Assembly: GCA_045802855.1 (NCBI GenBank)
Contig: JBJMQD010000036.1
Location: 1 to 58,046, forward strand
Length of the DNA stretch: 58,046 nucleotides
Reading direction: 5' to 3'
From: Myxococcales bacterium
GTDB taxonomy: Bacteria > Myxococcota > Myxococcia > Myxococcales > 40CM-4-68-19
Below, piece after piece: positions 12,212 to 55,554 of the stretch. Made by a program: the position numbers and the translations under genes. Position 1 is the stretch's first letter. Every line of letters starts with the position of its first letter. The notes under the pieces are model-generated. The model saw nothing but the letters and a program-made list of their open reading frames with translations, was not told the DNA's origin and searched no databases.

Positions 12212-12657
12212 CGGTGCGCATCGATCCCGATTTCCTCGTCCGGTGGGTGAGGGAGGAGCTTTCGCGGACGGGCGACGAACCTGTCTTCGACGGCATCGCC
12301 GCGCGAGGGGCTGAAGACGGCCTCGCCGAGGACGAGGCGGAGCTGGAAGCCGCCGAGGAGATCGCCGCTCGCCGCGGGCTTCGCTTCGCGCTCCTCGACG
12401 CCGCCGCCGGCCTCGGGGAGGTGGACGTGCGAGAGGCCCGCGGGGGCATCGAGTGGATCGAACGGGCGCTTCGTCCCGAAGGCCAGCGGGATCTCTTCGG
12501 AGAGCTGGCCCCGTCGAATTGCACGGCGTTCCTCCGCAGCGCCCCCGGGGCCGCGCAAAGGCTGCGTGCCCTCGCGCGGCTGCTCCTCGACGAGCCGGGT
12601 GCGTCGCGCGCCGAGCTTCCCGGTCTGGGCGGAAGCCCGGGGTGCTCGATTCGCTGA
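12208..12657 (+). CDS. Acidic hypothetical protein
   Basis: ATG 12208 overlaps the preceding stop as ATGA, and the codons are GC3-rich. I recognised no motif. Confidence 0.5.
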   Translation: MTVRIDPDFLVRWVREELSRTGDEPVFDGIAARGAEDGLAEDEAELEAAEEIAARRGLRFALLDAAAGLGEVDVREARGGIEWIERALRPEGQRDLFGELAPSNCTAFLRSAPGAAQRLRALARLLLDEPGASRAELPGLGGSPGCSIR

Positions 12658-16309: not shown

Positions 16310-17109
16310 GGCGAATCGGGCTCCGGCGGCGGGCGGGCCTCCGCCCACTGCGCGCGCGTCGGCCGGAGCGTGACGTCGATCTGTTGCCCGACCGACGCGG
16401 AGACCTCGGCGCTGCAGGGCAGCGTGTCGCAGGAGAGCTTCGCGTTCGTGACCGGCCCCGGCGCCCCCCGCGGCAGCTCCGGGCGGACGAGGCCTATGCG
16501 GCAGCGAGCGCCGTGCGGAATCCAGAGCGTCGCGCGCCCGTCGAGTACACCGGCGCGCGCCTCCCAGCTTTCGCCGCCCGCGCAGACCGCCCGCACCGCG
16601 GCGGCGGCCCGTATGCCTCGTTCGGGACGGACGACCTCCACCAGGGCGCGCCCCGGACGCTCGAACGTCGCGACCCAGGTAGCCGGCTTTCTCGCGATCA
16701 CCGTCGCGTACCCGCGCTGCACGTCGGCGAAGTACCGCGCCGGAGGCTGGACGTCGCACCGCCATGCGCCCTTCGCGAGGCCAGGCCACTTCGCCTCTCC
16801 GAAGACGTCGCTCAGGCCCGCGAACTCCTTCCCGTCCGGTCCGGTGCATCTGACCCGCGCATCGATGACTGGATTACGCGCGTCGTCCACCACCTGGACC
16901 ACGAGCGGCCCCGGATTCTGGACGACGAGCCACAGGATCACCGCGATGAGCGCGAAGACCACCGCGACGACCGCACCCTCGAGCCACCCGGGGACGCGGC
17001 TCGCGAACCGCGGCTCGAATGTGCCCAGCGACCCGGCGGCATCTCCGTATGCTCTGGTCCGTGGCCTACGGGCGTCGCGAGCGGAGCCCGCTCGTCCGAT
17101 TCCGATCAC
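16306..17109 (-). CDS. Membrane-anchored hypothetical protein (N-terminal TM helix, Cys-containing beta-rich ectodomain)
   Basis: GTG 17109 overlaps the queD stop as GTGA. The TM segment is GAVVAVVFALIAVILWLVV. The remainder is beta-rich with 6 Cys. It was trimmed from a 655-aa track ORF. Confidence 0.6.
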   Translation of the reverse strand: MIGIGRAGSARDARRPRTRAYGDAAGSLGTFEPRFASRVPGWLEGAVVAVVFALIAVILWLVVQNPGPLVVQVVDDARNPVIDARVRCTGPDGKEFAGLSDVFGEAKWPGLAKGAWRCDVQPPARYFADVQRGYATVIARKPATWVATFERPGRALVEVVRPERGIRAAAAVRAVCAGGESWEARAGVLDGRATLWIPHGARCRIGLVRPELPRGAPGPVTNAKLSCDTLPCSAEVSASVGQQIDVTLRPTRAQWAEARPPPEPDSP

Positions 17110-32252: not shown

Positions 32253-34505
32253 ATGGACGGCGCACAGATCTCCACCTTTCCCCCGCCTCCGCAGCCCACG
32301 GAGAAGGCGCCCGTCCCTGCGCTTGCCCCCGTTCCGGCCCCCGAAGCCGTGCCGGCGCAGTCGCTGAACGACGCCCGGTTCTTCATCAATCGGGAGCTCT
32401 CCTGGCTCGCGTTCGACGAGCGGGTCCTGGAGGAGGCCTGCGACCCACAGGTCCCCGCCCTCGAACGCCTCAAGTTTCTCGCGATCACCTCGTCGAACCT
32501 CGACGAATTCTTCATGATTCGCGTCGCGGGCTTGAAGCAGCAGCTCGTCGGCCACGTCGAGGAGACCGGGCCCGACGCGCTCACCCCCGCCGAGCAGCTC
32601 ACCGCCATCAGCGCCCGTTGCCACGCCATGGTGGCGCGCCAGTACAAGGCGCTGATGCAGGACGTGCTCCCGAACCTGGAGCGCGCCGGCGTCCGGCTCC
32701 TCCGCCATGGGAAGCTCTCGACGGAAGCAGACGCCTTCGTCGACGAGTACTTCTGGCGGGAGGTCTTTCCGGTCCTCACGCCCATCGCGCTCGATCCGGG
32801 CCATCCCTTCCCGCATCTCCGCAACAAGTCGCTGAACCTCGCGGTCCGGTTCTCGGCGGGGACCCCGGGGGGGCGCCTCCGGTACGGGATCATCCCGGTC
32901 CCGAGCGTCCTGCCCCGGCTCGTCGAGGTGCGCGATTCCGGCCGGCGCAGCTACGCGCTCCTCGAGGACGTGATCGCCCGCCACGCCGCCCAGCTCTTCC
33001 CCGGGATGCCCATCGAGGGCTGCTACCCCTTCCGGGTGACGCGCAACTGGGACATCTCCATCGACGAGGAGGAGGCCGAGGACCTCCTCGTCACCATCGA
33101 GCGCGAAGTGCGCCGGCGCGACCGCGGCAGCGCGGTGCGCCTGGAAATCGCGGCCCAGGCCGAACAGCCGATGGTCGACTACCTCGTCCGCGCCCTGAAG
33201 CTCGGGCCCGGAGACGTGTACCGGCCCGACGGGCCGCTCGATATCCCGGACCTGCTTTCCCTTCTCGGCCGCATCGAGCAGAAGGAGCTGCACGACGAGC
33301 CCTTCTCGCCCGTCATCCCGCCCCAGATCGGCGACGGCGAGCGCGATCTCTTCCGGCTCATCCGCGAGCGCGACGTCCTCCTCCATCATCCCTACGAATC
33401 GTTCGATCCGGTGGTGAGCTTCATCGAAGCCGCCGCCGACGACCCGGCCGTCCTCGCCATCAAGATGACGCTGTACCGCGCGGGCAAGGACTCGCCGGTG
33501 GTGCGGGCGCTGCAGCGGGCGGCCGACAACGGCAAGCAGGTGACCGCGCTCGTCGAGCTGAAGGCCAGGATGGACGAGGAGGCGAACATCGTCTGGGCCC
33601 GCGCGCTCGAGCAGGCGGGCGTCCACGTCGTCTACGGTCTCATTGGTTACAAGACACACAGCAAAGCCGCCCTCGTCGTGCGGCGGGAGAGCGCGGGCCT
33701 GCGACGGTACGTGCACCTCGGCACCGGGAACTACAACCCGGTAACCGCGCGCATCTACTCGGACCTGTCGCTCTTCACGGCGAAGGAGGACTTCGGCGCC
33801 GACGCGACGTCGCTCTTCAACCTCCTCACCGGCTACTCGAAGCCGATGGCGTGGAAAAAGTTCAAGGTCGCCCCGCTCTCGCTCAAGGCCTCCGTCCTCG
33901 AGCTCATCGAGCGCGAGGCGCAGATCGCGTCGCAAACGGGCAAGGGGCGGATCGTCGCCAAGATGAATTCGCTCTCCGAGCCCGACGTGATCAAGGCGCT
34001 CTACCGCGCCTCGCAGGCCGGAGTGCAGATCGACCTCGTCGTCCGGGGCGTCTGCGTGCTGCGGCCGGGCATCCCGGGAGTGTCCGACCGGATCCGCGTG
34101 ACGAGCATCGTCGACCGGTTCCTCGAGCACGCGCGGATCTGGCACTTCGAAGCAGGCGGGAAGCGGGAGATGTTCCTGGCCTCCGCGGACTGGATGCAGC
34201 GCAACTTCGTCCGCCGGGTGGAAATCGCGTTCCCGGTCGACGATCCGGCCATCCGCGACCGGATCTTCGACGAGATCCTCGCCATCTCGCTCTCCGACAA
34301 CGTCAAGGCCCGGATCCTTCGTGCCGACGGGACGTACGAGCGTGCCCCGGTTGCGCCGGGTGCGCCCACGGTCCGCAGCCAGGAGCGTTTCATGGCGTTC
34401 GCGCGGCGCGCCTCTTCCGCGGCCGAGGCGCCCGTCGCCGCCGCGGACGTGTTCCCCAACCAGCGCCGGCCGGAGCGCCGCCGCAAGAAGCGGACGCTGG
34501 CATGA
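32253..34505 (+). CDS. ppk: Polyphosphate kinase 1
   Basis: FFINRELSWLAFDERVLEEA, LDEFFMIRV and GYKTHSKAALVVR (autophosphorylated-His region), plus two PLD-like C-terminal domains. The protein is 750 aa from ATG 32253. Confidence 0.92.
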   Translation: MDGAQISTFPPPPQPTEKAPVPALAPVPAPEAVPAQSLNDARFFINRELSWLAFDERVLEEACDPQVPALERLKFLAITSSNLDEFFMIRVAGLKQQLVGHVEETGPDALTPAEQLTAISARCHAMVARQYKALMQDVLPNLERAGVRLLRHGKLSTEADAFVDEYFWREVFPVLTPIALDPGHPFPHLRNKSLNLAVRFSAGTPGGRLRYGIIPVPSVLPRLVEVRDSGRRSYALLEDVIARHAAQLFPGMPIEGCYPFRVTRNWDISIDEEEAEDLLVTIEREVRRRDRGSAVRLEIAAQAEQPMVDYLVRALKLGPGDVYRPDGPLDIPDLLSLLGRIEQKELHDEPFSPVIPPQIGDGERDLFRLIRERDVLLHHPYESFDPVVSFIEAAADDPAVLAIKMTLYRAGKDSPVVRALQRAADNGKQVTALVELKARMDEEANIVWARALEQAGVHVVYGLIGYKTHSKAALVVRRESAGLRRYVHLGTGNYNPVTARIYSDLSLFTAKEDFGADATSLFNLLTGYSKPMAWKKFKVAPLSLKASVLELIEREAQIASQTGKGRIVAKMNSLSEPDVIKALYRASQAGVQIDLVVRGVCVLRPGIPGVSDRIRVTSIVDRFLEHARIWHFEAGGKREMFLASADWMQRNFVRRVEIAFPVDDPAIRDRIFDEILAISLSDNVKARILRADGTYERAPVAPGAPTVRSQERFMAFARRASSAAEAPVAAADVFPNQRRPERRRKKRTLA

Positions 34506-35305
34506 GCGCGTTCGTCACCGCGGTGGCGCTCTCCGTTTCCGTCTTCGCCGCGGCGGCCACGCGTTCGCCCTGGAGACAGATCGCCCCTGGCGTGGAGAAC
34601 GCAACGGTCGCCGATCTAGGAGGCGACGCGAACTGGGCGGCGAAGGTCGTCCTGGTCGATCCGCAGCTGGTGCAGTTCGCCATCCGGTTCGATGCGGCGA
34701 GGCCGACCCTCAAGGAATGGCGGGCGCGTTTCCCATCGGCCATCGCGATCATCAACGGCTCCTTCTACTCGAGCGATTCGGCCGAGATCCGGCCCACCTG
34801 CGAGCTCGTCCAGGAAGGAAAGCGCGTGAAGGGAGCCGGGTGCCTGCGGCAGGACGCGCTGTACTTCGGAGCCCGGCCGAAGAACGCGCCGCCTGTGGTC
34901 GCTAGCATCGCTCCCACCCGGCCCGCGGCCTCGCCCTCTTCGCCGCGATTTCTCGCTCCTTCCGCCTTCCGCGCCGACGACTGGGTGGAGGCGCTGAAGA
35001 GCTTTCCCGCCCTCGTGCACGAGGGCACCCCGGCCTGCAACGGCCCCCATTACTGTGCCGAATCGAGCAGGACCGCCGCCCTGGGACAGCTCAGGGATGG
35101 CAGGATCCTTCTCTTCGCCTCGCAGTGGCCGGCGGTGCGCCGCGAAGTCGGACGGTGGCTGTCGGACGCCCTCGGCGCGGTCGAAGTGCTGAACCTCGAT
35201 GGAGGCCCGGAAGCGACGCTCGCCCTCCACGGCGAGCCGCTCGAGGACACCATCGGAACGAACGGCCGTGGCCTCCCGCTCGTGTTGGTGGTCCTCCCGC
35301 CGTAG
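34502..35305 (+). CDS. Phosphodiester glycosidase family (DUF2233/NAGPA-like) secreted protein
   Basis: ATG 34502 overlaps the ppk stop as ATGA. It has a signal-like N-terminus and INGSFY and LNLDGGPEATL motifs typical of the family. Confidence 0.65.
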   Translation: MSAFVTAVALSVSVFAAAATRSPWRQIAPGVENATVADLGGDANWAAKVVLVDPQLVQFAIRFDAARPTLKEWRARFPSAIAIINGSFYSSDSAEIRPTCELVQEGKRVKGAGCLRQDALYFGARPKNAPPVVASIAPTRPAASPSSPRFLAPSAFRADDWVEALKSFPALVHEGTPACNGPHYCAESSRTAALGQLRDGRILLFASQWPAVRREVGRWLSDALGAVEVLNLDGGPEATLALHGEPLEDTIGTNGRGLPLVLVVLPP

Positions 35306-35489
35306 CCAGTCCGGAGACTTTCCCGCCACCCTCCGGATCCGGCTGTTTCTGTTGCAATCTCCGCTTTTTTCGGATACTTGAGCCGCGGCCAAGCGGGCAG
35401 CCGCTCATCGGGCGTCAAAATCTTGCTCCATGACCAGCTTTGCGGTCTTTCCGGATGTCATCGGACTGTCACGGGGCCACAGGAGGTAG

Positions 35490-37811
35490 ATGCTGCTCAC
35501 GGGGTTTGCGCTGGTCTGGCTGACGCTCCTTGCCGCCTACGGCATCCGCGTCGCCCTCGCGGGCCGCTTCGCGCACGCACGCGCCCAGAAGGAACCGGGT
35601 AGTCCCTTTCTGGGGCGGTTTTTGATCGAATTCGGTTACTGGGCTTTCTCGCCGCTCGAGAAGGCGTGCCTTCTGCTGGGAGTCACTCCCAACCAGCTCA
35701 CCGCGGCGTCCCTCGCCGCGAGCCTCGGCGCCGCCTTGTTCTTCGCGCTCGGCGATCCCTCGGTCGCGGGTGCGCTGGTGATCCTCTGCGCCATCTTCGA
35801 CGCGCTCGATGGGATGGTGGCGCGGGCCCGCGGCACGGCTTCGGATGCGGGCGAGCTCATCGACGCCGCGGTCGATCGGTACGCGGAAATCGCGACGTTC
35901 GCGGGCATCGCCGCCTATTACCGGACCTACCTGCCCGGCTTCTGGCTCGCGCTCGCTTCGCTGGGAGGCGCCCTCCTCGTCTCTTATGCCAGGGCGAAGG
36001 GCGAGATCAGCGGCATCGACGCACGGATGGGCGCGATGAATCGCGGCGAGCGGGCCATGTATCTCGGCATCGCCGGGCTTGCCGCGCCAGTCGTCTCCTC
36101 CTGGCTGGAGCCCTCCGCCTCGGCGCCGCTCTACCATGCCCTTCTCGCCACCCTCGCGCTCATCGCGGTGATGGCGAACGCGACGGCCGTGCGGAGGTTC
36201 CTCTTCATCCACCGCGAGCTGCGCAAGCGAGACGGCCACGTCCCCGAGCCGCGGACAGATCCGCTCCACGGATGGATGAACCGCGCCACCGTGGCTTCGG
36301 TGATCGCCACGGTGATCGATTACGGGACGTTCACCGCCCTCGTCGGCATCGCGGGCGTCTACACGGGGACGTCCCGCGCGCTCGGCGCGCTCCTCGGCGC
36401 GATCACCAATTTCACCGTCAACAAGCTCTGGACCTTCCGTACTGGAGGGGACTCGGTCTGGCACGAGGGCCCCCGGTACGCAGCCATCTCGCTCACCTCG
36501 CTATTGCTGAATACCCTCGGCGTCGTCCTCCTCACCGACGGGCTGCACTGGAATCCGCTGCTCGCCGCCGCCGTGGTCGGCACGCTGGTCGCCGTGGGAT
36601 GGAACCTTCCGCTGCACCGCCACTTCGTCTTCCGGCCGAGCCGCAGGCCCAGGCTCGCGCTCCTCGGGGCGCTGGCCTCGGCGACGGCGGCGGTGGCAGT
36701 CCTCTTCGTCGCCTATGGCATGCCCTCCGCGGAGGAGAGCGTGCACGGCTTCTCCATCCACGCGGACGACGCGGCCCCTTCGGGGAGCGCGAGCTTCCTG
36801 CCCAAGCTCCGGCCGGAGGCGTTCTACTCGGAGAGCTACTCCTTCCTCTTCTCCGCCGAGGATGGCACGTTCGTCCGGGTCCAGTTCCTCGTTTCGAACG
36901 GCGGGCTCGAGGCGCGCGGCAAGGCCGCGGCGCGGGCGGTGATGGTGCTCCCCGACGGCAGCACCGTCGAGGACGCCGACACCTTCGATCCCGAGCAGTG
37001 GAACGTCCTCTCCGAGGGCGCCATCGAGATGGGCGCGCACAGGCTCACCATGGGCCCGGACGCGAGCCATCACGTCCATTTCGGCGGGAAGAAGTTGGTG
37101 GTCGACGCCACCGTGCTCCCCGAGACGAAGCCGCTCCGGCCCGGAGGCGGAAGGGTGGTCTTCGACGCGAGCGGCCGCGCCGTGTTCGACCAGACCATCT
37201 TCGCCTTGCGGAGCCGTTTCGACGGCAGCGTCTGGAGTCCCCGCCGCGGCAACAAGCGCGTCAAAGGCTACTGCTACGCGGACACCTCCTACAGCACGGT
37301 GCCTGCCTACAAGAGCGCTTCGCTCTGGCTGCGGATGGAGGCGTTCGACGATGGGTCGGACGGGACCGCGGCCCTCGCCGTGCTCTTCCCGCCGCAGGGA
37401 ACGCTCCGGCAGCCGGAAGGCTGGCTCTACACGAGCAAGAACGGCAAGACGGAAGTCCGCTCGAGCGAGGTGAAGGTCGCGTTCGAGGATCTCCGCCACG
37501 AGCCTGGCGGGCGGTTCGAGTACGACGTCCCGCAGCGGATCATCGCGGTCGCGCGGGGCGCGGAGGACGAGCGCGTCACCTTGACCTTGCAGGCCCGCAG
37601 GCTCCTCTACAAGGAGGACGTGCTGGGCGAGATGGGGCCGCTCTCCCGGCTCCTCGTCAGCACGGTCGCCGCACCCATGGCCTACACATACGAGAATGGC
37701 TACACGCTGCGCATCGAGCGCAAGGGTGAGCCCGCCGAGGTGCGTAGCGGCACGGCGCTCACCGAGTTCTCCTACGCCAACAAGCCGTCGCAGCTCGCGG
37801 CGGCGTTCTAG
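35490..37811 (+). CDS. Three-domain fusion: CDP-alcohol phosphatidyltransferase + GtrA-like 4-TM domain + ~370-aa uncharacterised beta-rich C-terminal domain
   Basis: DALDGMVARARGTASDAGELIDAAVD matches D-x2-DG-x2-AR-x8-G-x3-D-x3-D perfectly. The GtrA signature is ITNFTVNKLWTF within four hydrophobic helices. A further TM segment follows, then a soluble-looking beta-rich domain. Confidence 0.8.
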   Translation: MLLTGFALVWLTLLAAYGIRVALAGRFAHARAQKEPGSPFLGRFLIEFGYWAFSPLEKACLLLGVTPNQLTAASLAASLGAALFFALGDPSVAGALVILCAIFDALDGMVARARGTASDAGELIDAAVDRYAEIATFAGIAAYYRTYLPGFWLALASLGGALLVSYARAKGEISGIDARMGAMNRGERAMYLGIAGLAAPVVSSWLEPSASAPLYHALLATLALIAVMANATAVRRFLFIHRELRKRDGHVPEPRTDPLHGWMNRATVASVIATVIDYGTFTALVGIAGVYTGTSRALGALLGAITNFTVNKLWTFRTGGDSVWHEGPRYAAISLTSLLLNTLGVVLLTDGLHWNPLLAAAVVGTLVAVGWNLPLHRHFVFRPSRRPRLALLGALASATAAVAVLFVAYGMPSAEESVHGFSIHADDAAPSGSASFLPKLRPEAFYSESYSFLFSAEDGTFVRVQFLVSNGGLEARGKAAARAVMVLPDGSTVEDADTFDPEQWNVLSEGAIEMGAHRLTMGPDASHHVHFGGKKLVVDATVLPETKPLRPGGGRVVFDASGRAVFDQTIFALRSRFDGSVWSPRRGNKRVKGYCYADTSYSTVPAYKSASLWLRMEAFDDGSDGTAALAVLFPPQGTLRQPEGWLYTSKNGKTEVRSSEVKVAFEDLRHEPGGRFEYDVPQRIIAVARGAEDERVTLTLQARRLLYKEDVLGEMGPLSRLLVSTVAAPMAYTYENGYTLRIERKGEPAEVRSGTALTEFSYANKPSQLAAAF

Positions 37812-37939
37812 AAAACTAGCTCGTTGCCGGCGTTTGGTGGACCGTTGTACACGGTTCCCGCGACTGCCGTCCCTTGGAGGGTCGGGCTCCCGGAAACCAA
37901 GCCCGGCGATGGGCTTCCTAACCAGCGAGGGACCATCCG

Positions 37940-39283
37940 TTGAAGCTCACCGCCCCCCACGTCGAAACCGCGATCCCCGGTCCGCGCAGTCAGGCGATCG
38001 TCGCGAAGGAGCAGCAGCATCTCGCACCCGGCCTGCAGGGCTTCGCCCTGACGAGCGGCATCGCGGTCGAGCGGGCGGAAGGGTCCGTCATCGAAGACGC
38101 CGACGGGAACCGCTTCGTCGACCTGATCGGCGGCATCGGCACGAATTCGCTCGGACATTGCCATCCCGCCTATCGCGAGGCGCTCCACGCGCAGGTCGAG
38201 AAGGCGACAGTGGGCTCGTTCACCTCGCAGGCCCGGGCAGACCTCATCTCCGAGGTCGCGGAAATCGCTCCGAAGGGCGTCGACCGCCTGCAGCTCTACT
38301 CGAGCGGCGCCGAGGCCGTGGAAAGCGCCTTCCGCCTGGCCAAGAACGCCACGGGCAAGTTCGAAGTAGCCGGGTTCTGGGGCGGGTTCCACGGCAAGAC
38401 GATGGGGACCCTCGCCGTCAACGGAGCGGGCAACCAGAGGACGTACGGCCCCGTACCTCCCGGCCATGTCCTGCCGTACGCGAACTGCTATCGCTGCCCG
38501 CTCGGGCTTGCCTACCCGTCCTGCGACGTCGCCTGCGCGGACCTCGCGCGCAAGCAACTCGAGCATCAGACTACGGGCTCATTGGCAGCCGTCATCGTGG
38601 AGCCCATGCAAGGAACCGCCGGAAACGTCATCCCGCCGCCGGAGTTCGTCGCACGGATGCAGACGATGGCGAAAGACCACGGCGCGCTCTTCATCGCCGA
38701 CGAGATGATCACGGGCTTCGGCCGCACCGGGCGCTGGTTCGCTTCGGAGCGCAGCGGCGTCGTGCCCGACCTCGTCACCCTCGGGAAGGGTTTCGGGTCC
38801 GGCTTTCCCATCAGCGGCGTCCTCGGCAACCGCGACGTGGTACAGGCGAAGCCGTGGGCGAACCCGAGCGGATCTTCTTCCAGCTACGGCGGAAACCCGC
38901 TTGCTGCCGCCGCCGCTCTCGCCACCATCCGGACCCTGAAGCGCGAGAACGTGTTCGCGAACGTCAAGCGCGTCGGCGCCGCCATGCTGGCGGAGCTGCG
39001 CACCTGGCCGGACCGGCTGCGCTGGGTGGGGGACGTTCGGGGCGAGGGCCTGTTCCTCGGCATCGAGCTCGTGCAGGATCGCAAGTCGAAAGAGCCGCTC
39101 GCGAAGAACGTCTGTCAGGAGATCTTCCGGGAAGGCCTTTCCAGGGGGCTCCTGGCGATGAGCTACACCCACGCCATCCGGCTGCAGCCCGCCCTCACCA
39201 TCGAGGAAGATCTCGCTCTACAAGGACTGGCCCTCTTGCGGGAGGCAATCGCGGCGGTCGCTCGTCGCCACGGAGCTGGATGA
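37940..39283 (+). CDS. Class III (PLP-dependent) aminotransferase
   Basis: GGIGTNSLGHCHP, GAEAVESA, FIADEMITGFGRTG and TLGKGFG (PLP Lys) motifs. TTG 37940 has GAGGGA upstream. Confidence 0.85.
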   Translation: MKLTAPHVETAIPGPRSQAIVAKEQQHLAPGLQGFALTSGIAVERAEGSVIEDADGNRFVDLIGGIGTNSLGHCHPAYREALHAQVEKATVGSFTSQARADLISEVAEIAPKGVDRLQLYSSGAEAVESAFRLAKNATGKFEVAGFWGGFHGKTMGTLAVNGAGNQRTYGPVPPGHVLPYANCYRCPLGLAYPSCDVACADLARKQLEHQTTGSLAAVIVEPMQGTAGNVIPPPEFVARMQTMAKDHGALFIADEMITGFGRTGRWFASERSGVVPDLVTLGKGFGSGFPISGVLGNRDVVQAKPWANPSGSSSSYGGNPLAAAAALATIRTLKRENVFANVKRVGAAMLAELRTWPDRLRWVGDVRGEGLFLGIELVQDRKSKEPLAKNVCQEIFREGLSRGLLAMSYTHAIRLQPALTIEEDLALQGLALLREAIAAVARRHGAG

Positions 39284-41943
39284 CGCCTGTACGCGACAGC
39301 GGCCCCCGGAAGGGAGACCGCTTCTGGGACAGGCTCTCGGCCGCGTCGGTCGAGCGGCCCTGGGCGCTGATCGCTTGCGGCGCGGCGCTCTTCCTCCTCT
39401 CCATGCCCTTCGCCGTGCGCCTTTACGGCGACCTTCGCACCGACCTCCGGGAGCTTCTCCCGCAAGGCGCGCCCGCCGCCGTCGGCCTGCAGGAGCTGGA
39501 GAAGCGGATCGGCGGGCTCGCCTCGCTCGCGGTGGTGGTCCGGACGGACGACCTCAAGGCGGGAGAGCGGTTCGTCGACGCGCTCGCTGCGAGCCTTCGC
39601 GCGCTGCCCTCGTCGATGGTGTCTGGCGTCTTCTATCGCATCGACGAGGAGCGCGACTTCTTCGAGGCGCACGGGGCGCTCTACGCGGAAGAGAAGGACC
39701 TCGTCCAGGTGCGCGACGCGCTCGTCGCCCGCAAGACAGAGGCCACCCGCAAGGCAAATCCGCTGGTCGTCGATCTGGACGAGGAGGAGCCGGCGAAGGC
39801 CGACGAGAAACCGGCCGCGGCCGATCAGGCAGCGCTCGACGGCGGCCTGCAGCGGCTGCGCGCCGCGTTCAGCAAGGTCGACCACTACATCGACGGGTAT
39901 CTCGCGGGCGAGGGCGGACGGACTCTCATCGTCCTGGTCAAGCCGCCGGGTTCCGCGGTGAGCCTCGACGACAACCAGCGCCTCTTCGGCACCGTCGAGA
40001 CGATGGTCAAGGAACTGAAGCCGGCGAGCTTCCATCCCAGCATCCGCATCGGGTACGGCGGCGAGGTCCGCAGCGTCATCGAGGCGCAAGAGGCGCTCGT
40101 GCGGGACCTCCTCGTCTCCACCATCCTGGTTCTCAGCACGGTCGCGGTTGCGCTGCTCCTCTACTACCGCGCCTGGCGCGCCATCCCGCTCCTCGTCCTG
40201 CCGCTCTTCGCGGGCGTCGCGGGAACCTTCGCCCTCTCGCGCGGCGTCATCCACTACCTGAACCCGAACACGGCGTTCCTCGGGAGCATCATCATCGGGA
40301 ACGGCATCAACGCCGGGATCATCCTCCTCGCCCGCTACTTCGAGGAGCGCAGGCGAGGCGCAAGCGTCGACATCGCGCTCCCCATCGCCCTCAAGACCAC
40401 CTGGCTGGGAACGTTCGCGGCGAGTGCCGCGGCCGCGGCGAGCTACGGTTCGCTCGGAGCGGTGAGCTTCCGCGGGTTCAACCAGTTCGGCTTCATGGGT
40501 CTCGCCGGCATGCTCATCTGCTGGGTGACGACGTACCTCTTGATGCCCCCGCTCATCGCAGTCGCCGAACGGGTGCGCCCGCTCCGGGAGCGCCGCCGGT
40601 CGCGGATCACCGGCTGGGTCGCGGCGCCCTACGCGCGGATGCTCACCACGTATCCCCGCAGCGCGGTGATCGCGTCGCTGGTATTGACCGCGCTGGCCGT
40701 CGTGGGCCTCGTCCGCTTCGCCCGCGAACCCATCGACTACGACTTCCGCCACCTCGGCAGCCGCGCGGGGCTCAAGGACGGTGCCGCGTTCTGGGACAGC
40801 CACGTCGACGCGGTGCTCCAGTCGTACCAGACGCCGACCGTGGTGATGACGGAGTCGACGCAGAAGGCGCAGACGGTAGCGTCTGCGCTCGAGGCCGCGA
40901 AGGAGAATCCGGCCTCTCTCGGCGACGTCGCCGGCCTTTCCGACGACGCCCGCAAGAGCGCGGCGGAGACGATCGATTCCGTCTCCACGCTGCAGAAGCT
41001 CGTTCCCGACCACCAGCAGCGCAAGATCGATCTGCTCCAGGAGATCTTCCGCATCGTCGCGCCCCCCGCGGGCAGCCCCGGGCTCATCGATGCCCGGGTC
41101 CTGAAGGCGCTGCCCGAAGACCTTCGCCCGACCTTGCTGCGACTGCGGGAGAAGACGAAGCTCGTCCCGGTCTCGCTCGCGGACGTGCCGCGGCGGCTCG
41201 TGCAGCCGTTCGTCGAGCGGGACGGTCACCGCGGGCGACTCGTGCTCGTCTATCCGACGCTGGAGACGGATTCCAAGCACGGCCGCGCTCAGATCCTGCA
41301 CGCGAAGCTCGTGCGCGGCGTGGCGTCGAAAGTCGACCCGGGGTCCCTGGTAGCGGGTCAGATCGTGCTCACGAGCGACATCATCGACGCCATCACCGGC
41401 GACGGCGGGTTCGCGGCCCTGTTGAGCTTCGTCGCGGTCGCCGTCCTCACCATCGTTGTGATGCGGTCGCTTCGCGGCGCTTCCTGGGTGCTCGGATCGC
41501 TCTGTCTCGGGGTCCTCGGAATGTTCGGCGCCCTGGGAGCCCTCTCGTTGCGACTCAACTTCGTCAACTTCGCCGTCCTCCCCATCACCTTCGGGATCGG
41601 CGTCGATTACGCAGTGAACTTCTACCAGCGATATCGACAATCCGATTGCGTCGAGGATGCCGTCGCCGCCGCCGGCGGCGCCGTGACGCTCTGCTCGGCG
41701 ACGACGATCATCGGCTACGCCACCCTGGTCACCGCCGACAACATGGCCATCCAATCCTTCGGCCTCACGGCGGTGATCGGCGAGCTCACCTGCTTGTCCG
41801 CGGCGCTCTTCGCGCTTCCCGCCCTTCTTGCCTTCGGCGATCGGCGGCGCACCGACCGTGCGCCGGAGGCGCCGCGAGTCGCTCCCACGCCCGCTCCGGC
41901 CGCCCTTCCCGCCGAGCCGCGACGCGAGGCGCAGGGGCTGTGA
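39280..41943 (+). CDS. MMPL/RND-superfamily transporter (HpnN-like architecture)
   Basis: 887 aa, with two blocks of about 6 TM helices, each preceded by a large soluble loop. ATG 39280 overlaps the aminotransferase stop as ATGA. Confidence 0.8.
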   Translation: MTPVRDSGPRKGDRFWDRLSAASVERPWALIACGAALFLLSMPFAVRLYGDLRTDLRELLPQGAPAAVGLQELEKRIGGLASLAVVVRTDDLKAGERFVDALAASLRALPSSMVSGVFYRIDEERDFFEAHGALYAEEKDLVQVRDALVARKTEATRKANPLVVDLDEEEPAKADEKPAAADQAALDGGLQRLRAAFSKVDHYIDGYLAGEGGRTLIVLVKPPGSAVSLDDNQRLFGTVETMVKELKPASFHPSIRIGYGGEVRSVIEAQEALVRDLLVSTILVLSTVAVALLLYYRAWRAIPLLVLPLFAGVAGTFALSRGVIHYLNPNTAFLGSIIIGNGINAGIILLARYFEERRRGASVDIALPIALKTTWLGTFAASAAAAASYGSLGAVSFRGFNQFGFMGLAGMLICWVTTYLLMPPLIAVAERVRPLRERRRSRITGWVAAPYARMLTTYPRSAVIASLVLTALAVVGLVRFAREPIDYDFRHLGSRAGLKDGAAFWDSHVDAVLQSYQTPTVVMTESTQKAQTVASALEAAKENPASLGDVAGLSDDARKSAAETIDSVSTLQKLVPDHQQRKIDLLQEIFRIVAPPAGSPGLIDARVLKALPEDLRPTLLRLREKTKLVPVSLADVPRRLVQPFVERDGHRGRLVLVYPTLETDSKHGRAQILHAKLVRGVASKVDPGSLVAGQIVLTSDIIDAITGDGGFAALLSFVAVAVLTIVVMRSLRGASWVLGSLCLGVLGMFGALGALSLRLNFVNFAVLPITFGIGVDYAVNFYQRYRQSDCVEDAVAAAGGAVTLCSATTIIGYATLVTADNMAIQSFGLTAVIGELTCLSAALFALPALLAFGDRRRTDRAPEAPRVAPTPAPAALPAEPRREAQGL

Positions 41944-42905
41944 AAGCGCTGGGACTGCGGGACCGCGCCCTTACGGCTCGGCGCGCGCATCCCTTCTTCC
42001 GCATCGGCGTCCCGCTGTTCTCCTTGATCTTCCTTCTGACGATGAAGGCGCTCGGAGGGCTCGGGCCGGAGCACGTCGCGTTCGTCGTCCTCCTGCTCGG
42101 GTTCGCCTTCTGGTCCGACAAAAGCCGCAGGATCGCTCGCGTCGTCTATCCGTTCCTCCTCTGGGCGCTCGTCTACGATTCGATGCGCTGGTACGAAGAC
42201 TTCATCCGCTCGCCGGTCATCCACGTCCGCGAGCCGTACGCGTTCGATCTGCGCTTCTTCGGGATCCATACCCCGCAGGGCATCCTCACTCCGAACGAGT
42301 GGCTGCAGATCCACACCAGCAAGGCGCTCGACCTCGTCTGCGGGCTCGCCTACACGCCGTTCTTCTTCATCGGGGAATCGATAATTCTCGCGCTCTACTT
42401 GTTTGCCAAAGGGCAGAGCCGGCTTGCCGAGCGATTCGCCTGGGTATTCGCCTGCGCGAACTTCCTCGGGTTCAGCCTCTACTACATCTACCCGGCGGCG
42501 CCCCCCTGGTACGTCGCGGCCCACGGGTTCCTGCCCGACCTCTCCGTGCGCGCGTCGCCCGCGGGGGCCATCCGTTTCGACCAGCTCGTCGGGCTGCCCA
42601 TCATGCAGGGCTTCTACGGAAAGAGCGCGGACGTCTTCGGCGCGATTCCCAGCCTCCACGTCGTGTACCCTTTGCTGGCGCTCATCTACGGATTCCACCT
42701 GCCCCGTTTCCGCGTCGTGGCCGTCTTCTATTTCCTGCTCGTTTGCTTCAGCGCCGTGTATTTGAACCACCATTACCTGCTCGATCTGCTGGTGGGATAC
42801 ACCGACGCGCTTCTGGTGATGGCGGCCTTTCGCCTCTCGCTCGGACCGGTGGTTCCCGCGAGCGAGCCCTCTGCGGAACCGGAGCCCGATCGCGTTCCCG
42901 CTTAG
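41940..42905 (+). CDS. PAP2-superfamily lipid phosphotransferase (Aur1/IPC-synthase / sphingomyelin-synthase-like)
   Basis: A polytopic membrane protein with IPSLHV and NHHYLLDLLVG (H-x3-D) motifs of the LPT/Aur1 type. GTG 41940 overlaps the MMPL stop as GTGA. Confidence 0.7.
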   Translation: MKALGLRDRALTARRAHPFFRIGVPLFSLIFLLTMKALGGLGPEHVAFVVLLLGFAFWSDKSRRIARVVYPFLLWALVYDSMRWYEDFIRSPVIHVREPYAFDLRFFGIHTPQGILTPNEWLQIHTSKALDLVCGLAYTPFFFIGESIILALYLFAKGQSRLAERFAWVFACANFLGFSLYYIYPAAPPWYVAAHGFLPDLSVRASPAGAIRFDQLVGLPIMQGFYGKSADVFGAIPSLHVVYPLLALIYGFHLPRFRVVAVFYFLLVCFSAVYLNHHYLLDLLVGYTDALLVMAAFRLSLGPVVPASEPSAEPEPDRVPA

Positions 42906-43984
42906 TGCCTCGACGCGGCGCGCTGGGCGTCTTTGCCGGTGGCCTGCTCGAGCGTGAGGCCGTCCCGCTCCAGCAGGTTTGCGAGGCCGCTCTCGATCCG
43001 CCGCGGTAGCGACGGCCCCTCGTAGACGAACGCGGTGTAGATCTGCACGAGGCTCGCTCCTGCCCGGATCCGCCGGTACGCGTCCTCCGCGGATCCGATC
43101 CCGCCCACGCCCACGATGGGAGTCTTTCCCCGCGTGCGCAGGTACAGACGCGCGCAGACCCGTTCGGCGCGGGTACGGAGCGGCAGGCCCGAAAGACCGC
43201 CCGACTCGCCGGCCGAAGGCTCCGAGTCGACGCCTGCCCGCGAGAGCGTCGTGTTGGTGGCGATGAGCCCGTCGGCGCCGGCGGAGACCGCGGCCGCTGC
43301 CATGGCGTCGAGGGCGTCGTCGGGCTCGTCGGGCGAAAGCTTCACCAGGATCGGTACCCGGCGCCCGTTCGCGGCAGCGAGAGCGTCGCGATCCCTGGTG
43401 AGGGTCTCGAGGAGCCGGCCGAGCGCGTCGGCGGACTGCAGCGCGCGGAGGCCGGGGGTATTCGGGCTCGAGACGTTCACCGCGACGTAATCGGCCCGCG
43501 GCGCGAGCGCACGGAACGCCGCCAGATAATCGTCCGCCGCGCGCTCGTTGGGGGTCGCCTTGTTCCGTCCGATGTTGATGCCCACCGGGCCCGGCTGGGG
43601 CGGAAGAGCCGCGAGCCGCGCCGCGACCGCCGCGGCTCCTTCGTTGTTGAAGCCCATCCGGTTGATGAGCGCTGCCTGCGCGGGCAGCCGGAAAAGCCGT
43701 GGCCGCTCGTTCCCGGGCTGCGGGAGCGGCGTGATCGTTCCCACCTCGACGAATCCGAAACCGAGCCGGAACCATGCCGGGACGAGGACCCTTCCTTTGT
43801 CCATCCCCGCGGCGAGCCCGATCGGTGAGGGAAAACGCAGCCCGAATAGTGTGCGGGCGAGCGGCCGATGCCGCGGCGGGCTCCCCGGGAGCCTCGTCCA
43901 GATACCCAGCAGGGCGGCCGCAAGCTCGTGGGCCCGCTCGGGGCCGAGGGCGAAGAGGAGCGGCCGTATCAGCCGGTACACCAA
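42902..43984 (-). CDS. pyrD: Dihydroorotate dehydrogenase (quinone), class 2
   Basis: PERAHE, GFGFVEVGTITP, NRMGFNN, NVSSPNTPGLR and GVGGI motifs. Confidence 0.93.
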   Translation of the reverse strand: MVYRLIRPLLFALGPERAHELAAALLGIWTRLPGSPPRHRPLARTLFGLRFPSPIGLAAGMDKGRVLVPAWFRLGFGFVEVGTITPLPQPGNERPRLFRLPAQAALINRMGFNNEGAAAVAARLAALPPQPGPVGINIGRNKATPNERAADDYLAAFRALAPRADYVAVNVSSPNTPGLRALQSADALGRLLETLTRDRDALAAANGRRVPILVKLSPDEPDDALDAMAAAAVSAGADGLIATNTTLSRAGVDSEPSAGESGGLSGLPLRTRAERVCARLYLRTRGKTPIVGVGGIGSAEDAYRRIRAGASLVQIYTAFVYEGPSLPRRIESGLANLLERDGLTLEQATGKDAQRAASRH

Positions 43985-51609: not shown

Positions 51610-52229
51610 TCCGCCCGGACGAGCTGACCTATGACGACCGCGGCCTCGTTCCCTGCATCGTCCAGGACGCGGCGACGGGCGAGGTGCTGATGCTCGCCTG
51701 GCAATCGCGCGAGGCCCTCGAACGCACTCTGTCTTCGGGCCAGGCGACGTTCTGGAGCCGCTCGCGCAACGAGCTTTGGGTCAAGGGCGCGACGAGCGGC
51801 AACACGCAACAGGTCCGCGCCGCCCGCACCGACTGCGACCGCGACGCCGTGCTCGTCCGCGTCACGCCCGCCGGACCGGCCTGCCATACCGGAGCGCGCT
51901 CCTGCTTCTTCGAGTCCCTGGGACCGGACGTTCCGGAGGCTCCCGGAGAGACGCTGGCCCGGCTCGAGCAGATCCTCGCCGCCCGCCGGGCGGAGCCGCC
52001 GCAAGGCTCGTACACGGCGAAGCTCTACGGCGACGAGAACCTGCGGCACAAGAAGATCGGCGAGGAAGCGACGGAGCTGGTGATGGCCGCGATGCGCGGC
52101 GACAAGAAGGAGATCGCCAGCGAAGCTGCCGATCTCCTCTACCACGTGCTCGTGGTGCTGCAGGCCCGTGGGCTGTCGCTCGCGGACGTGACGGCCGTCC
52201 TCCGCGAGCGCGAAGGCAAGCGGCGCTAA
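51606..52229 (+). CDS. hisI: Bifunctional phosphoribosyl-AMP cyclohydrolase / phosphoribosyl-ATP pyrophosphatase
   Basis: The HisI part has [20 protein letters not shown] and DCDRD motifs. The HisE part has [15 protein letters not shown] and EAADLLYH motifs. It overlaps hisF as ATGA. Confidence 0.92.
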
Positions 52230-53197
52230 CAGGCCTCGACGCGCTCCTCGACGGAAGGCGCGGCGACCCGCTTGAGCCAGCACTCGCGCCAGTACGGCAG
52301 GATCGCGCGCGGGCAGAAGTAGCGCGAGAAGCTGTGCTCGCCCGAGCAGACGACGTTCTCGAGCGTCACGCAGTCGCTCTTCATCTCGATGATCGCGCCG
52401 GTGTGGTCGTCGATGATCCGCTCGATCCTCTTCTTCACCCGGTACGTCTTCCCGCAGAACGGCAGCATCTCGCGATCGAAGTAGAGCCCCCGGTGCTTTC
52501 CCTCGCGATTGAGGGTCGTCTCGATCTCCTCGGGGGACTTCACCTGTACCCAATCGCCGGGCTGGAGCCCGAGCGTCGGGTGCTTGGGAGAGGCTGCCGT
52601 GTCTCCCTGCAGCGGCGGTCCGCCGAGGAGCTTCAGCTTCAGGAGCGGCTGTTCGACGGCCGCGCGCGCGAACACCTTGACGAAGGTGCCGAGCGGGACG
52701 TTCCCGGAGGTGTACTCGCGGACGTAGGGGCGGGGATCGAACGTTCGCAGCCGCTCCGACGCCCGGAGCAGCTCCGTCGCCTGGCAGCGATAGCGATCCC
52801 CACGCTGGCGATTCGCGTCGGCGACCCAGCGCAAGGTCGGGTAGGAGGGATCCTCGCTCTCGGGAGCGCTCACGGGCCTGAGCGACTCCACCGGCCTCAG
52901 CCAACGTTCCTTCCAGAAGAGGCGGCATTCCGCCTGGCAGCCCGCATGGGCGCGCCCGTCGCAGCGCAGATCCCCGAGCAGGACGGCATCGTTCAGTCTG
53001 CGGCTCCCGGTCTGCGCGATGGTGTCGCAGATCTTGTCCGCGCGCTTGTCGACGACGAACCGCCGGCCGATGTACGGCAGCATCTCCGGCATGAAGGGCA
53101 GCGCCTCGAGGGCACCGCTGTCGTCGAGCGTGGCGAGGATCTCGCCGGCGCTCCGCACCTCGACCAGATCCCCTGCCACAAGGCCGCGATGGACCAT
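52226..53197 (-). CDS. Hypothetical protein made of two tandem copies of a Cys-rich domain of unknown function
   Basis: 323-aa ORF with native-like GC3 bias. The two halves align: [17 protein letters not shown]...[15 protein letters not shown]...[13 protein letters not shown] against [17 protein letters not shown]...[15 protein letters not shown]...[15 protein letters not shown] lies 7 nt upstream of ATG 53197. Confidence 0.65.
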
Positions 53198-54275: not shown

Positions 54276-54776
54276 CTACCTGAACCGGCGCAGCTCCTTC
54301 ACCATCACGATCGCGTCCTCGCCCTCGTCGACGTAGTAGTTCGGCCGCACGCCGACCGCGCGGTAGTCGAATCCGCGGTACAGCTCGATCGCCCCCACGT
54401 TGCTCCGTCGCACTTCCAGCGTCATCAGCGTCGCTCCCGCCTGCAGCGCGCGGCGCTCGGTCTCGCTCATGAGGAACTTCGCGATGCCGCGCCGGCGGTG
54501 CTGCGGATCGGTCGCGACGTTCAGGATGTGGACCTCGTCGTGCACGAGCCAGAAGATGAGGAAGCCCGCGATCCGCTCCGTCGCCCGGCTTCCCGAAGCG
54601 GAAGTGAGCGGCTCGATGCACACGAGGATGGTGCTCCAGTCGTGCTCGAGCTCGCGGCGGAAGAGCTCCGCCGACCAGGGATGCTTGAAGGCGGCGCGCT
54701 CGATCTCCATCACCTCGTCGAGATCGTCCGATCGCATCCGCCGGATCTCGAAGCGGGGGCGCGCGCGGACCGCCAT
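54276..54776 (-). CDS. rimI: Ribosomal-protein-alanine N-acetyltransferase (GNAT)
   Basis: IERAAFKHPWS and the acetyl-CoA site QHRRRGIAKFL, plus LEVRRSN..A..LY. The ATG lies 1 nt after the upstream stop. Confidence 0.8.
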   Translation of the reverse strand: MAVRARPRFEIRRMRSDDLDEVMEIERAAFKHPWSAELFRRELEHDWSTILVCIEPLTSASGSRATERIAGFLIFWLVHDEVHILNVATDPQHRRRGIAKFLMSETERRALQAGATLMTLEVRRSNVGAIELYRGFDYRAVGVRPNYYVDEGEDAIVMVKELRRFR

Positions 54777-54777
54777 G

Positions 54778-55554
54778 TCAGTGCGCCTCCGCCGCACCCG
54801 CATCGGCCGCTTGCTGCGCGCCGGGAGCCTTCGCCACTGGGAGACCGTCCACTTTGCTCCCGGCGACGGAGCGCCCGTCGCCTTCGAGAGGATCGAGGAT
54901 GCGGACGTCCGCCTTGCGGCGCAGATCGGCGAGCAGCCCTTCGAGCAGCCGCTCGTATTTCTCCCGCCCGAGCTGCTGGCGCATGCGGCCGCGGTCGGCT
55001 CCCGGCGACGCGCGGATCGCCTCGTCCAGCTCGGCGTCGCGGACCTGGGCAGCGAGCTTGAGCCGGTTGTCGAGGTACCGGGAGACCCGCAGGTCGCGCG
55101 CCAGGACGAGCGCCACCTCTTCCGACGTCATCTGGATGCGGGCGAGGAAGCGGTCATAGGCTTCGGCGGTAGGAAAGCGCGAGCGGAAGCGGGCGAGCGC
55201 GCCTTCCACCTCGGCGTGGTCGAGATCGAAGAGCCGCAGCCGATCGACCTCGGCGAGGATCACCCGCTCCTCGATCAGCCTGCGCAGCGACGCCGCGAGG
55301 AGCGCTCGATCCGGGTCCGATTCCGCCGCCTGCGCGCCCTGGTGCTCGACCAGATGGATGCGCGTCTCGGCGACCAGCTCCGACAAGGTGATGGAGCGTG
55401 CGTCGACCACCGCCACCACCTCGTCGACCAGCGTCCGCTGCGGGGTCTGTGCCGGCGCCGCTGCGGCGGAGAGGAGCAAGGCGAAGACGGCCACGGCGCG
55501 CACCTGGAAATCGTAACGACCACGGGGATCGCTGGTCAATGAGAGCGATCTCAT
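54778..55554 (-). CDS. Periplasmic SurA N-terminal-domain-like chaperone
   Basis: The signal-peptide-like segment is VRAVAVFALLLSAAAAPAQ. A helical domain follows with ITLSELV and RRLIEERVILAE patterns typical of SurA_N-type proteins. There is no PPIase domain. The start could be ATG 55554 (AGGAGGGG upstream) or GTG 55503. Confidence 0.55.
   Translation of the reverse strand: MRSLSLTSDPRGRYDFQVRAVAVFALLLSAAAAPAQTPQRTLVDEVVAVVDARSITLSELVAETRIHLVEHQGAQAAESDPDRALLAASLRRLIEERVILAEVDRLRLFDLDHAEVEGALARFRSRFPTAEAYDRFLARIQMTSEEVALVLARDLRVSRYLDNRLKLAAQVRDAELDEAIRASPGADRGRMRQQLGREKYERLLEGLLADLRRKADVRILDPLEGDGRSVAGSKVDGLPVAKAPGAQQAADAGAAEAH

Follow-up and report, generated by a model that had tools for sequence, protein, structure and literature searches.

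Few bacteria make inositol lipids or sphingolipids, and the pathways involved are understood only from work on Bacteroides, mycobacteria and archaea. In Bacteroides thetaiotaomicron, BT_1526 encodes MIPS, the synthase of myo-inositol phosphate, BT_1523 a phosphatidylinositol phosphate (PIP) synthase, BT_1525 a PgpA-like PIP phosphatase, BT_1522 an AUR1-like phosphoinositol-dihydroceramide synthase and BT_1524 a membrane protein with a GtrA motif (Heaver et al. 2022, PMC9246714). Prevotella and Bacteroides have a putative 'alternative' CDP-inositol pathway that uses an NTP transferase and a CDP-alcohol transferase, with a BT_1521-like protein encoded nearby, and Myxococcus xanthus is reported to contain ceramide phosphoinositol (PMC9246714). 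Here we analyze a 58,046-nucleotide stretch of DNA from a Myxococcales bacterium (contig JBJMQD010000036.1 of assembly GCA_045802855.1, hereafter the window), in which four co-directional genes at positions 35490-42905, designated G1 to G4, very probably form an operon, related to BT_1522-BT_1526, for the head group and the export of an inositol-type lipid. The composite reading that we favor, to which we assign a probability of roughly 0.55, is that this operon attaches an inositol-type head group and exports the product, as a derived version of the BT_1522-BT_1526 system with an amination step. The core of the locus is a known kind of system, to which an AttH-like domain, an aminotransferase and an MMPL exporter are three unstudied additions.

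An earlier reading of this DNA (the original prediction) had proposed a novel polar-lipid biosynthesis and export module encoded by the same four genes. The window has a G+C content of ~69% and its raw lists of open reading frames (ORFs) are crowded with spurious frames; genes were called from a third-codon-position GC (GC3) frame plot, frame segmentation and ORF calls. The GC3 plot and ORF calls recovered the four predicted co-directional genes, and direct reading of the sequence bore out both predicted overlaps, an ATGA joining G2 to G3 at 39280 and a GTGA joining G3 to G4 at 41940. Pfam annotation agreed with all four predicted domain assignments: CDP-OH_P_transf (residues 66-174) and GtrA (residues 269-381) in G1, Aminotran_3 in G2, MMPL in G3 and PAP2_3 in G4. 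The features of the module, all on the plus strand, are as follows.

35481-35486, plus strand: ribosome-binding site AGGAGG of G1, from direct sequence reading
35490-37811, plus strand: G1, 773 amino acids (aa), ATG start; fusion of a PIP-synthase-like domain, a GtrA domain, one transmembrane helix and a (predicted) periplasmic double-barrel domain
35607-36239, plus strand: CDP-alcohol phosphatidyltransferase domain of G1, PIP-synthase type (residues ~40-250)
36273-36632, plus strand: GtrA-family four-helix membrane domain of G1 (residues ~262-381; PF04138, 73.7 bits)
36651-36716, plus strand: extra transmembrane helix of G1 (residues 388-409)
36777-37808, plus strand: AttH/CrtC/Svf1-like tandem beta-barrel domain of G1 (residues ~430-773)
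37940-39283, plus strand: G2, class III pyridoxal phosphate (PLP) aminotransferase, 447 aa; TTG is the sole in-frame start
39280-41943, plus strand: G3, MMPL/RND (HAE3-like) transporter, 887 aa, ATG start; Pfam MMPL
41940-42905, plus strand: G4, AUR1-type PAP2_3 phosphotransferase, 321 aa, GTG start; Pfam PAP2_3

That the four window genes all serve a single process is argued above all by their linkage, which is kept through rearrangement. Related loci were surveyed by scanning one genome per species, followed by tblastn with all module proteins, and fall into three layers. The first, the window's own clade, holds 19 loci including the window, in the order NAGPA-like gene, G1 with its AttH-like domain, aminotransferase, MMPL and PAP2; the fused PIP synthase-GtrA-AttH protein, the aminotransferase and the MMPL transporter occur together in 19 of 19 and PAP2 in 17, and the order holds in loci L001 and L018, where the genes upstream are flagellar and not ppk1 as in the window. 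The second layer comprises 21 more distant loci with rearranged gene order, from Myxococcaceae, Polyangiales, Oligoflexia, Bdellovibrionota and related metagenome-assembled genomes (MAGs) and metagenomes, whose proteins share ~32-52% (PIP synthase), 48-63% (aminotransferase), 36-53% (PAP2) and 33-38% (MMPL) identity with those of the window. All 21 pair the aminotransferase with a PIP synthase, and they carry a GFO/IDH/MocA-type dehydrogenase (IDH-like) in 17, MIPS in 10 and GtrA in 19, many loci lying on short contigs that make MIPS counts lower bounds; PgpA, sometimes present, was found in L164, L165, L036, L026 and L072. In the third layer, Sorangium, Polyangium, Chondromyces and Bacteriovorax have a PIP synthase with or without a nearby GtrA or PAP2 gene and lack the aminotransferase and dehydrogenase. 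Three of the rearranged loci show the range of arrangements.

L164:8662-17662 and L165:256-8767: complete eight-gene string MIPS, IDH-like, PIP synthase, GtrA, aminotransferase, PAP2_3, PgpA, MMPL; the fullest version of the cluster family
L166:1566-9466: PIP synthase, GtrA, aminotransferase, IDH-like, MMPL, then a metallophosphoesterase and a PfkB-family sugar kinase

The last two genes of L166 are possible head-group phosphatase and kinase steps. Other permutations place PAP2 before MMPL, put MMPL first, or run aminotransferase, IDH-like, MMPL. The original prediction had named orthologous clusters split apart in relatives as evidence that would count against it, and the opposite was found: because the arrangement recurs in 19 clade loci and, rearranged, in 21 distant ones, it is more than chance. 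A head-group synthesis and export module, conserved and translationally coupled, is supported.

Two loci of the window's clade have peculiarities of their own. At L002:12700-16320, on a 568-kb ENA contig, the genes for the aminotransferase and the MMPL transporter appear as short fragments between intact flanking genes, most likely a long-read frameshift error rather than decay. In L001:1-7733, a flagellar block of flgK, flagellins, fliD and fliS lies just 5' of the module; to our knowledge myxobacteria are generally non-flagellated, and such a block is thus unexpected in a MAG labeled 'Myxococcales'.

The N-terminal domain of G1 resembles enzymes that use inositol phosphate. Its catalytic motif D104x2D107G108x2A111R112...G121x3D125x3D129 (DX2DGX2AR...GX3DX3D) is invariant in the homologue alignment, and the top NCBIfam matches of G1 are all inositol-phosphate enzymes (archaetidylinositol-phosphate synthase at 115 bits, BT1523-type PIP synthase at 96 and PIPSynth at 94), with scores under all three PIP-synthase equivalog cut-offs (NF045883, 94.4 against 170 bits; NF052561, 95.8 against 350; NF040950, 114.8 against 180). 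The closest solved structure is Mycobacterium tuberculosis PgsA1 (6h53), and of its inositol-phosphate pocket residues (PMC6506517), R94, S132, Y133, R152 and R155 correspond to R130, S165, Y166, R185 and R188 of G1, all invariant among 12 homologues; K135 and R137 correspond to R168 and K170, and the equivalent of R195 falls beyond the aligned region. The GtrA domain that follows, modeled as four helices, is a putative lipid-linked head-group flippase and counterpart of BT_1524, and in relatives GtrA is either fused to the PIP synthase or encoded by a separate gene beside it. Past the GtrA domain, residues 388-409 form a further helix (hydropathy peak 2.37, also a helix in the structure model), preceded by a loop at residues 376-388 with five lysine or arginine and no aspartate or glutamate residues. 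Hydropathy, the charge of the loop and signal peptides in homologues together predict that the last ~365 residues of G1 are periplasmic. The full-length model of G1 was poor (predicted local distance difference test, pLDDT, 54) and served for helix positions only, the C-terminal domain being re-modeled alone. G1 is identical to an annotated protein from a 'Myxococcales bacterium' MAG, and every full-length relative at 60% identity or above derives from MAGs or metagenomes of uncultured Myxococcales or Deltaproteobacteria.

The C-terminal part of G1, which the original prediction could describe only as an unknown domain, proved to be a real domain with a recognizable fold. Modeled alone with AlphaFold2 (AF2), it gives an all-beta structure (pLDDT 81.8, predicted TM-score 0.83), and Foldseek matches this model to AttH NE1406 (2ich), the fungal Diels-Alderases Fsa2, Phm7 and CghA, kievitone hydratase and 25-phosphosteroid lyase, at probability 1.0, E-values of 1e-14 to 1e-8 and TM-scores of ~0.6-0.7. 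The model thus assigns the domain to the AttH/CrtC/Svf1 double-barrel fold, a class that holds hydrophobic (lipid or terpenoid) ligands and includes enzymes such as hydratases and lyases, and we consider it a putative lipid-binding or hand-off module. The Svf1_C match of G1 itself is weak (18.6 bits, cut-off 25). An exhaustive phmmer search with the domain returned 220 relatives, mostly stand-alone proteins of ~360 aa; four of four inspected stand-alone homologues carry signal peptides, and most of 10 scanned homologues match Pfam Svf1_C or CrtC, several above cut-off (Svf1_C, 47.5 and 40.9 bits; CrtC, 28.1 bits). Among the surveyed cluster loci the AttH-like domain is confined to the window's clade. 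Yeast Svf1 is a ceramide-binding tandem lipocalin that supports, or feeds, the Aur1 step (PMC10038888). A separate 443-aa protein, P0237, combines GtrA with an AttH/Svf1-like domain in the absence of a PIP synthase, so that the flippase-like and lipocalin-like parts recur as a pair.

At the level of homology, G4 belongs with inositol-phosphorylceramide and phosphoinositol-dihydroceramide synthases. It matches Pfam PAP2_3 at 74 bits, its sole NCBIfam match is PhinosDhcerSyn (NF052609; 197.9 bits, below the cut-off of 480), and its sole Protein Data Bank matches are yeast AUR1 (9vj3 and 9ivc), at E 8e-22 over ~240 residues with the PAAPPWY, PSLH and HHYxxD motifs, including the catalytic His/His/Asp, aligned. 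The original prediction had spoken of two different head-group transferases; both are present, but they are not independent, corresponding to consecutive steps of the characterized Bacteroides pathway, BT_1523 followed by BT_1522. G3 matches Pfam MMPL (PF03176) at 102.7 bits against a cut-off of 20.5 and has two ~225-aa periplasmic loops (residues 47-276 and 486-709) between clusters of hydrophobic, transmembrane hydropathy peaks. HpnN provides both its top NCBIfam model and its closest solved structure (64 bits), at scores below both HpnN cut-offs (TIGR03480, 206.3 against 751.85 bits; NF052374, 116.1 against 1100), followed by HAE3 at 138 and BstA at 122 bits. We regard G3 as a putative transporter that carries the completed lipid to the outer membrane.

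The aminotransferase G2 belongs to a subfamily that travels with lipid clusters and with a dehydrogenase. It matches Aminotran_3 (PF00202) at 314.8 bits and retains the class III essentials, namely the PLP Schiff-base lysine (LGK), the PLP-binding aspartate (DEMITG) and the alpha-carboxylate arginine (RLQPAL). In all 31 aligned cluster-linked aminotransferases the motifs FHGKT, EPxQGTAGN, DEMITGFGRTG, SSSYGGNP, the LGK lysine and the RxQP arginine are shared. When the alignment of cluster-linked aminotransferases was scanned reciprocally against metagenome contigs, 80 loci were returned; a GFO/IDH/MocA gene lies immediately 3' of the aminotransferase in ~70 of them, and 7 are PIP synthase/GtrA clusters. 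The majority are a different cluster of high-GC soil metagenomes, which resembles a CDP-inositol-type lipid cluster and embeds the aminotransferase-dehydrogenase pair.

L150:7575-16000 (also L111, L121, L107, L100 and L146): high-GC soil cluster with two NTP transferases, an unknown 285-aa protein, the aminotransferase, the IDH-like dehydrogenase, a 418-aa CDP-alcohol transferase, a CopD-like membrane protein and LPG_synthase_TM (BT_1521-like); sometimes MIPS

Across loci outside the window's clade, a GFO/IDH/MocA gene lies within 8 kb of the aminotransferase in 83 of 94, and the 73 loci that have the aminotransferase without a PIP synthase carry the dehydrogenase in 66 and MIPS in 9. Since the pair occurs in two cluster types, it appears to follow the head group and not one transferase chemistry. 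The simplest common denominator is that it modifies a head-group precursor, turning the MIPS product into an inosose phosphate and then an inosamine phosphate, and we propose G2 as the inosose(-phosphate) aminotransferase of a cluster-specific subfamily. The IDH-like family is large (2,988 profile hits at E<=1e-30, including Bdellovibrionota, Oligoflexia and Deltaproteobacteria), and its cluster member scores 55-64 bits against IolG and equally poorly against levoglucosan, UDP-GlcNAc 3-dehydrogenase and xylose dehydrogenase models; the dehydrogenase substrate is therefore taken from context and not from sequence. At L163:10001-11095, a member of the family stands alone: its neighbor is a multihaem cytochrome gene, and aminotransferase and lipid genes are absent. 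The family is thus not exclusively cluster-bound. The streptomycin and rhizopine aminocyclitol pathways follow the logic proposed here, a GFO/IDH/MocA-type dehydrogenase followed by a PLP aminotransferase that together convert an inositol hydroxyl to an amine; these pathways yield antibiotics or opines rather than membrane lipids.

Building on the gene structure, homologies, motifs, fold and conserved linkage described above, we propose a pathway in which the substrates, the order of steps, the topology of G4 and the amination are predictions. On the cytoplasmic face, the N-terminal domain of G1 would join CDP-diacylglycerol to an inositol-phosphate-type acceptor, yielding a phosphatidyl-inositol-phosphate-type lipid whose extra phosphate would be removed by a phosphatase encoded elsewhere (PgpA in related clusters). 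The fused GtrA domain could then move the lipid to the periplasmic leaflet, supplying an outer-leaflet donor for the AUR1-type G4, whose active site is expected to be non-cytoplasmic by homology with the yeast enzyme. On the periplasmic side, G4 would transfer the phospho-head group to ceramide or another lipid acceptor, the AttH/Svf1-like domain of G1 may bind the lipid substrate or product (ceramide or the product of the reaction) in parallel to yeast Svf1, and the MMPL pump G3 would deliver the product towards the outer membrane. G2, together with a GFO/IDH/MocA dehydrogenase whose gene lies next to it in relatives and is absent from the window, would convert a ring hydroxyl of inositol phosphate to an inosose and then to an amine, making the head group an inosamine; taken by itself, we hold an aminated head group at just short of an even chance. 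The original prediction offered an aminated phospholipid or a phosphosphingolipid, and an aminated and/or phosphosphingolipid is still the best reading of the product. An inositol basis, which it did not mention, is probable, related clusters carrying MIPS and PgpA. In its widest form, which we advance tentatively, the proposal is of a widespread undescribed class of bacterial lipids with an inosamine phosphate head group, made by the dehydrogenase and class III aminotransferase from the MIPS product and attached in Myxococcota and Bdellovibrionota by way of PIP synthase and in other soil bacteria by a CDP-inositol-type route; for the lineage of the window, the AUR1-like enzyme would pass the phospho-head group to ceramide, aided by the flippase-lipocalin fusion, and the MMPL protein would export the product.

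Several observations weigh against this proposal. The pathway cannot be completed from the visible genes, and the aminotransferase has no visible partner in the window. G1, G2, G3 and G4 all score below curated equivalog cut-offs, and for this reason no substrate is established. The known inosose aminotransferases StsC and MosB belong to the DegT/StsC family and differ from class III enzymes. Pfam annotation of nearly all genes in the 58-kb window found no MIPS, GFO/IDH/MocA, spt, shc or hpn gene, tblastn of the window and its clade found no MIPS, IDH-like or PgpA gene, and none of these three lies within 10 kb of the module in any of the 19 window-clade loci. Because no inositol lipid can be made de novo without MIPS, the window locus is evidently incomplete. 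The window also has no spt, ceramide synthase or ceramide reductase gene, which makes ceramide as the acceptor an assumption. A literature search found nothing on inosamine or amino-inositol lipids or on this gene combination, a result that fits novelty and also fits non-existence of the lipid, and deletion of BT_1524 had no lipid phenotype (PMC9246714). A profile search and four context look-ups aimed at the dehydrogenase of the window's clade returned only distant complete clusters and one stand-alone gene. The missing MIPS, dehydrogenase and PgpA genes may sit together elsewhere in the genome, as they are adjacent in relatives.

Four other explanations were considered. First, the dehydrogenase and aminotransferase could make an amino-polyol head group from a different sugar or polyol phosphate, or act on the finished lipid or its sphingoid part, with the CDP-alcohol transferase using another acceptor. 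The indiscriminate matches of the IDH-like protein to sugar dehydrogenase models, the presence of MIPS in just 10 of 21 and 9 of 73 linked loci, and the position of G1 below the PIP-synthase cut-offs all fit this explanation. We nevertheless judge it unlikely: MIPS is the precursor gene wherever these clusters contain one, its counts being minimum values on short contigs, G1 keeps the inositol-phosphate pocket residues of PgsA1, and the sole family matches of G4 are inositol-phosphoceramide synthases.

Second, the locus could be an ordinary phosphatidylinositol or inositol-phosphoceramide operon with an exporter, in which G2 is a GabT- or ArgD-like enzyme of general metabolism riding along. 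The solved structures nearest to G2 are indeed GABA aminotransferases, its NCBIfam list consists mostly of GabT, ArgD and aspartate-family models, no dehydrogenase lies beside the aminotransferase in the window's clade, and the ceramide phosphoinositol reported from M. xanthus is plain. Set against this, G2 reaches no NCBIfam equivalog cut-off (GabT models, 296 against 639, 256 against 507 and 273 against 676 bits), and in 31 of 31 orthologues the arginine that binds the GABA carboxylate (R141 of E. coli GabT) is a lysine (K153 in G2) and QGEGG is replaced by QGTAG. Its subfamily lies beside PIP synthase, GtrA, PAP2 and MMPL genes in rearranged orders and near the dehydrogenase in the great majority of loci outside the window's clade, and the MMPL gene begins in overlap with the stop codon of G2. 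On these active-site substitutions and this conserved linkage, we rejected a housekeeping GabT or ArgD function as the leading interpretation and regard the explanation as quite improbable.

A third explanation, to which we give a similarly slim chance, is that the pathway was remodeled in the window's clade, losing MIPS, the dehydrogenase and PgpA, gaining the AttH-like domain and the NAGPA-like gene, and turning to a different, possibly scavenged substrate with a new carbonyl substrate for the aminotransferase. This would account for the absence of all three genes within 8 kb of the aminotransferase in 19 of 19 clade loci, in which the AttH-like domain is present in 19 and the NAGPA-like gene in 18, and it accords with the hydratases and lyases among AttH-fold proteins. 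Yet the active-site motifs of the aminotransferase are identical to those of dehydrogenase-linked orthologues, the window enzyme is closest (59-63% identity) to PIP synthase-linked ones arranged as aminotransferase, IDH-like, MMPL, and the inspection spanned ±10 kb, which makes it at least as probable that the missing genes have moved elsewhere as that they were lost. Finally, a hopanoid side-chain module with an HpnO aminotransferase and an HpnN exporter, the alternative that the original prediction had itself raised, draws on HpnO also being a class III aminotransferase and on HpnN being the best model and best structure for G3, and we reject it as having next to no chance, given that G3 falls far below both HpnN cut-offs, that whole-window Pfam annotation found no shc or hpn genes, and that all 40 related clusters have PIP synthase, GtrA and AUR1-like genes at their core, many of them also carrying MIPS. 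The inositol-type head-group and export operon with an amination step is the reading that we retain.

The surroundings of the module define its boundaries. Upstream lies ppk1, then a NAGPA-like gene joined to it by an ATGA overlap at 34502, then a gap of 184 nt; downstream the module converges with pyrD, beyond which lies the his operon.

34502-35305, plus strand: NAGPA-like phosphodiester glycosidase gene (Pfam PF09992, 50.9 bits) with a hydrophobic, signal-like N-terminus at residues 1-19
42902-43984, minus strand: pyrD, convergent with the module; the downstream boundary

The 184-nt gap probably holds the operon promoter; a simple consensus scan found no terminator or sigma-70 consensus site in it and nothing useful in the intergenic gaps of the module, and Rfam and tRNA scans of the window returned nothing. 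The NAGPA-like gene lies directly 5' of G1 in 18 of 19 window-clade loci, including L001 and L018 with their different genes further upstream, and is missing from all more distant clusters surveyed; it is a possible accessory gene with a putatively secreted product. The rest of the window consists of housekeeping genes (valS, groEL, a PlsB-type acyltransferase, thiG/thiE, a two-component system, folE2, recO, dnaJ and others). The PlsB-type glycerol-3-phosphate acyltransferase (positions 12685-15294), 869 aa with GPAT_C and Acyltransferase domains, is followed by a DeoC/LacD-family aldolase, and five coding regions well supported by high GC3 have no Pfam match (250-1401, minus strand; 12208-12657, plus; 16306-16962, minus; 52226-53197, minus; 54469-55542, plus).

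The window locus and ~40 related loci extend a Bacteroides-type pathway to uncultured soil Myxococcota and Bdellovibrionota. They offer candidates for open steps of such pathways, namely movement of the donor to the outer leaflet (GtrA), periplasmic handling (the AttH/Svf1-like domain) and delivery to the outer membrane (the HpnN-like MMPL protein), and the AttH/Svf1-like domain would be a bacterial parallel to yeast Svf1 feeding Aur1. The pairing of aminotransferase and dehydrogenase in two types of inositol-lipid cluster predicts a zwitterionic or cationic amino-inositol head group; if this is true, the head group would weigh ~1 Da less than inositol and give a positive ninhydrin reaction, a prediction that mass spectrometry can test.

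Compared with BT_1522-BT_1526, the window likewise encodes counterparts of the PIP synthase (BT_1523), the GtrA protein (BT_1524) and the AUR1-like PAP2 enzyme (BT_1522), whereas MIPS and PgpA counterparts are found in related Myxococcota clusters and not at the window locus. The window differs further in that its PIP synthase and GtrA are fused and extended by a transmembrane helix and a predicted periplasmic AttH/Svf1-like domain, in the addition of a class III aminotransferase and an MMPL exporter, and in its distance from the Bacteroides-specific equivalogs (96 against 350 bits and 198 against 480 bits). G1 shares with PgsA1 (6h53), RsPIPS and archaetidylinositol-phosphate synthase the catalytic motif, the six-helix core and the inositol-phosphate pocket residues, but has an extra N-terminal helix, C-terminal fusions and sub-cut-off scores, and unlike these enzymes may accept an aminated inositol phosphate. 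The soil clusters with the closest non-myxobacterial relatives of G2 have the NTP transferases, CDP-alcohol transferase and LPG_synthase_TM of the alternative CDP-inositol pathway, with or without MIPS, and add the aminotransferase-dehydrogenase pair, whereas the window uses the PIP-synthase route. The window shares with HpnN/HpnO systems an RND/MMPL lipid exporter of the HpnN-like branch and a class III aminotransferase presumably acting on a lipid-pathway carbonyl, and is set apart from them by its sub-cut-off HpnN scores, the lack of hopanoid genes nearby and its inositol-lipid context. With respect to yeast, G4 aligns to Aur1 and the C-terminal domain of G1 falls in the same broad double-barrel family as Svf1; the window is bacterial, with no Kei1-like subunit seen, and its Svf1-like domain is predicted to be membrane-anchored in the periplasm, whereas Svf1 is cytosolic.

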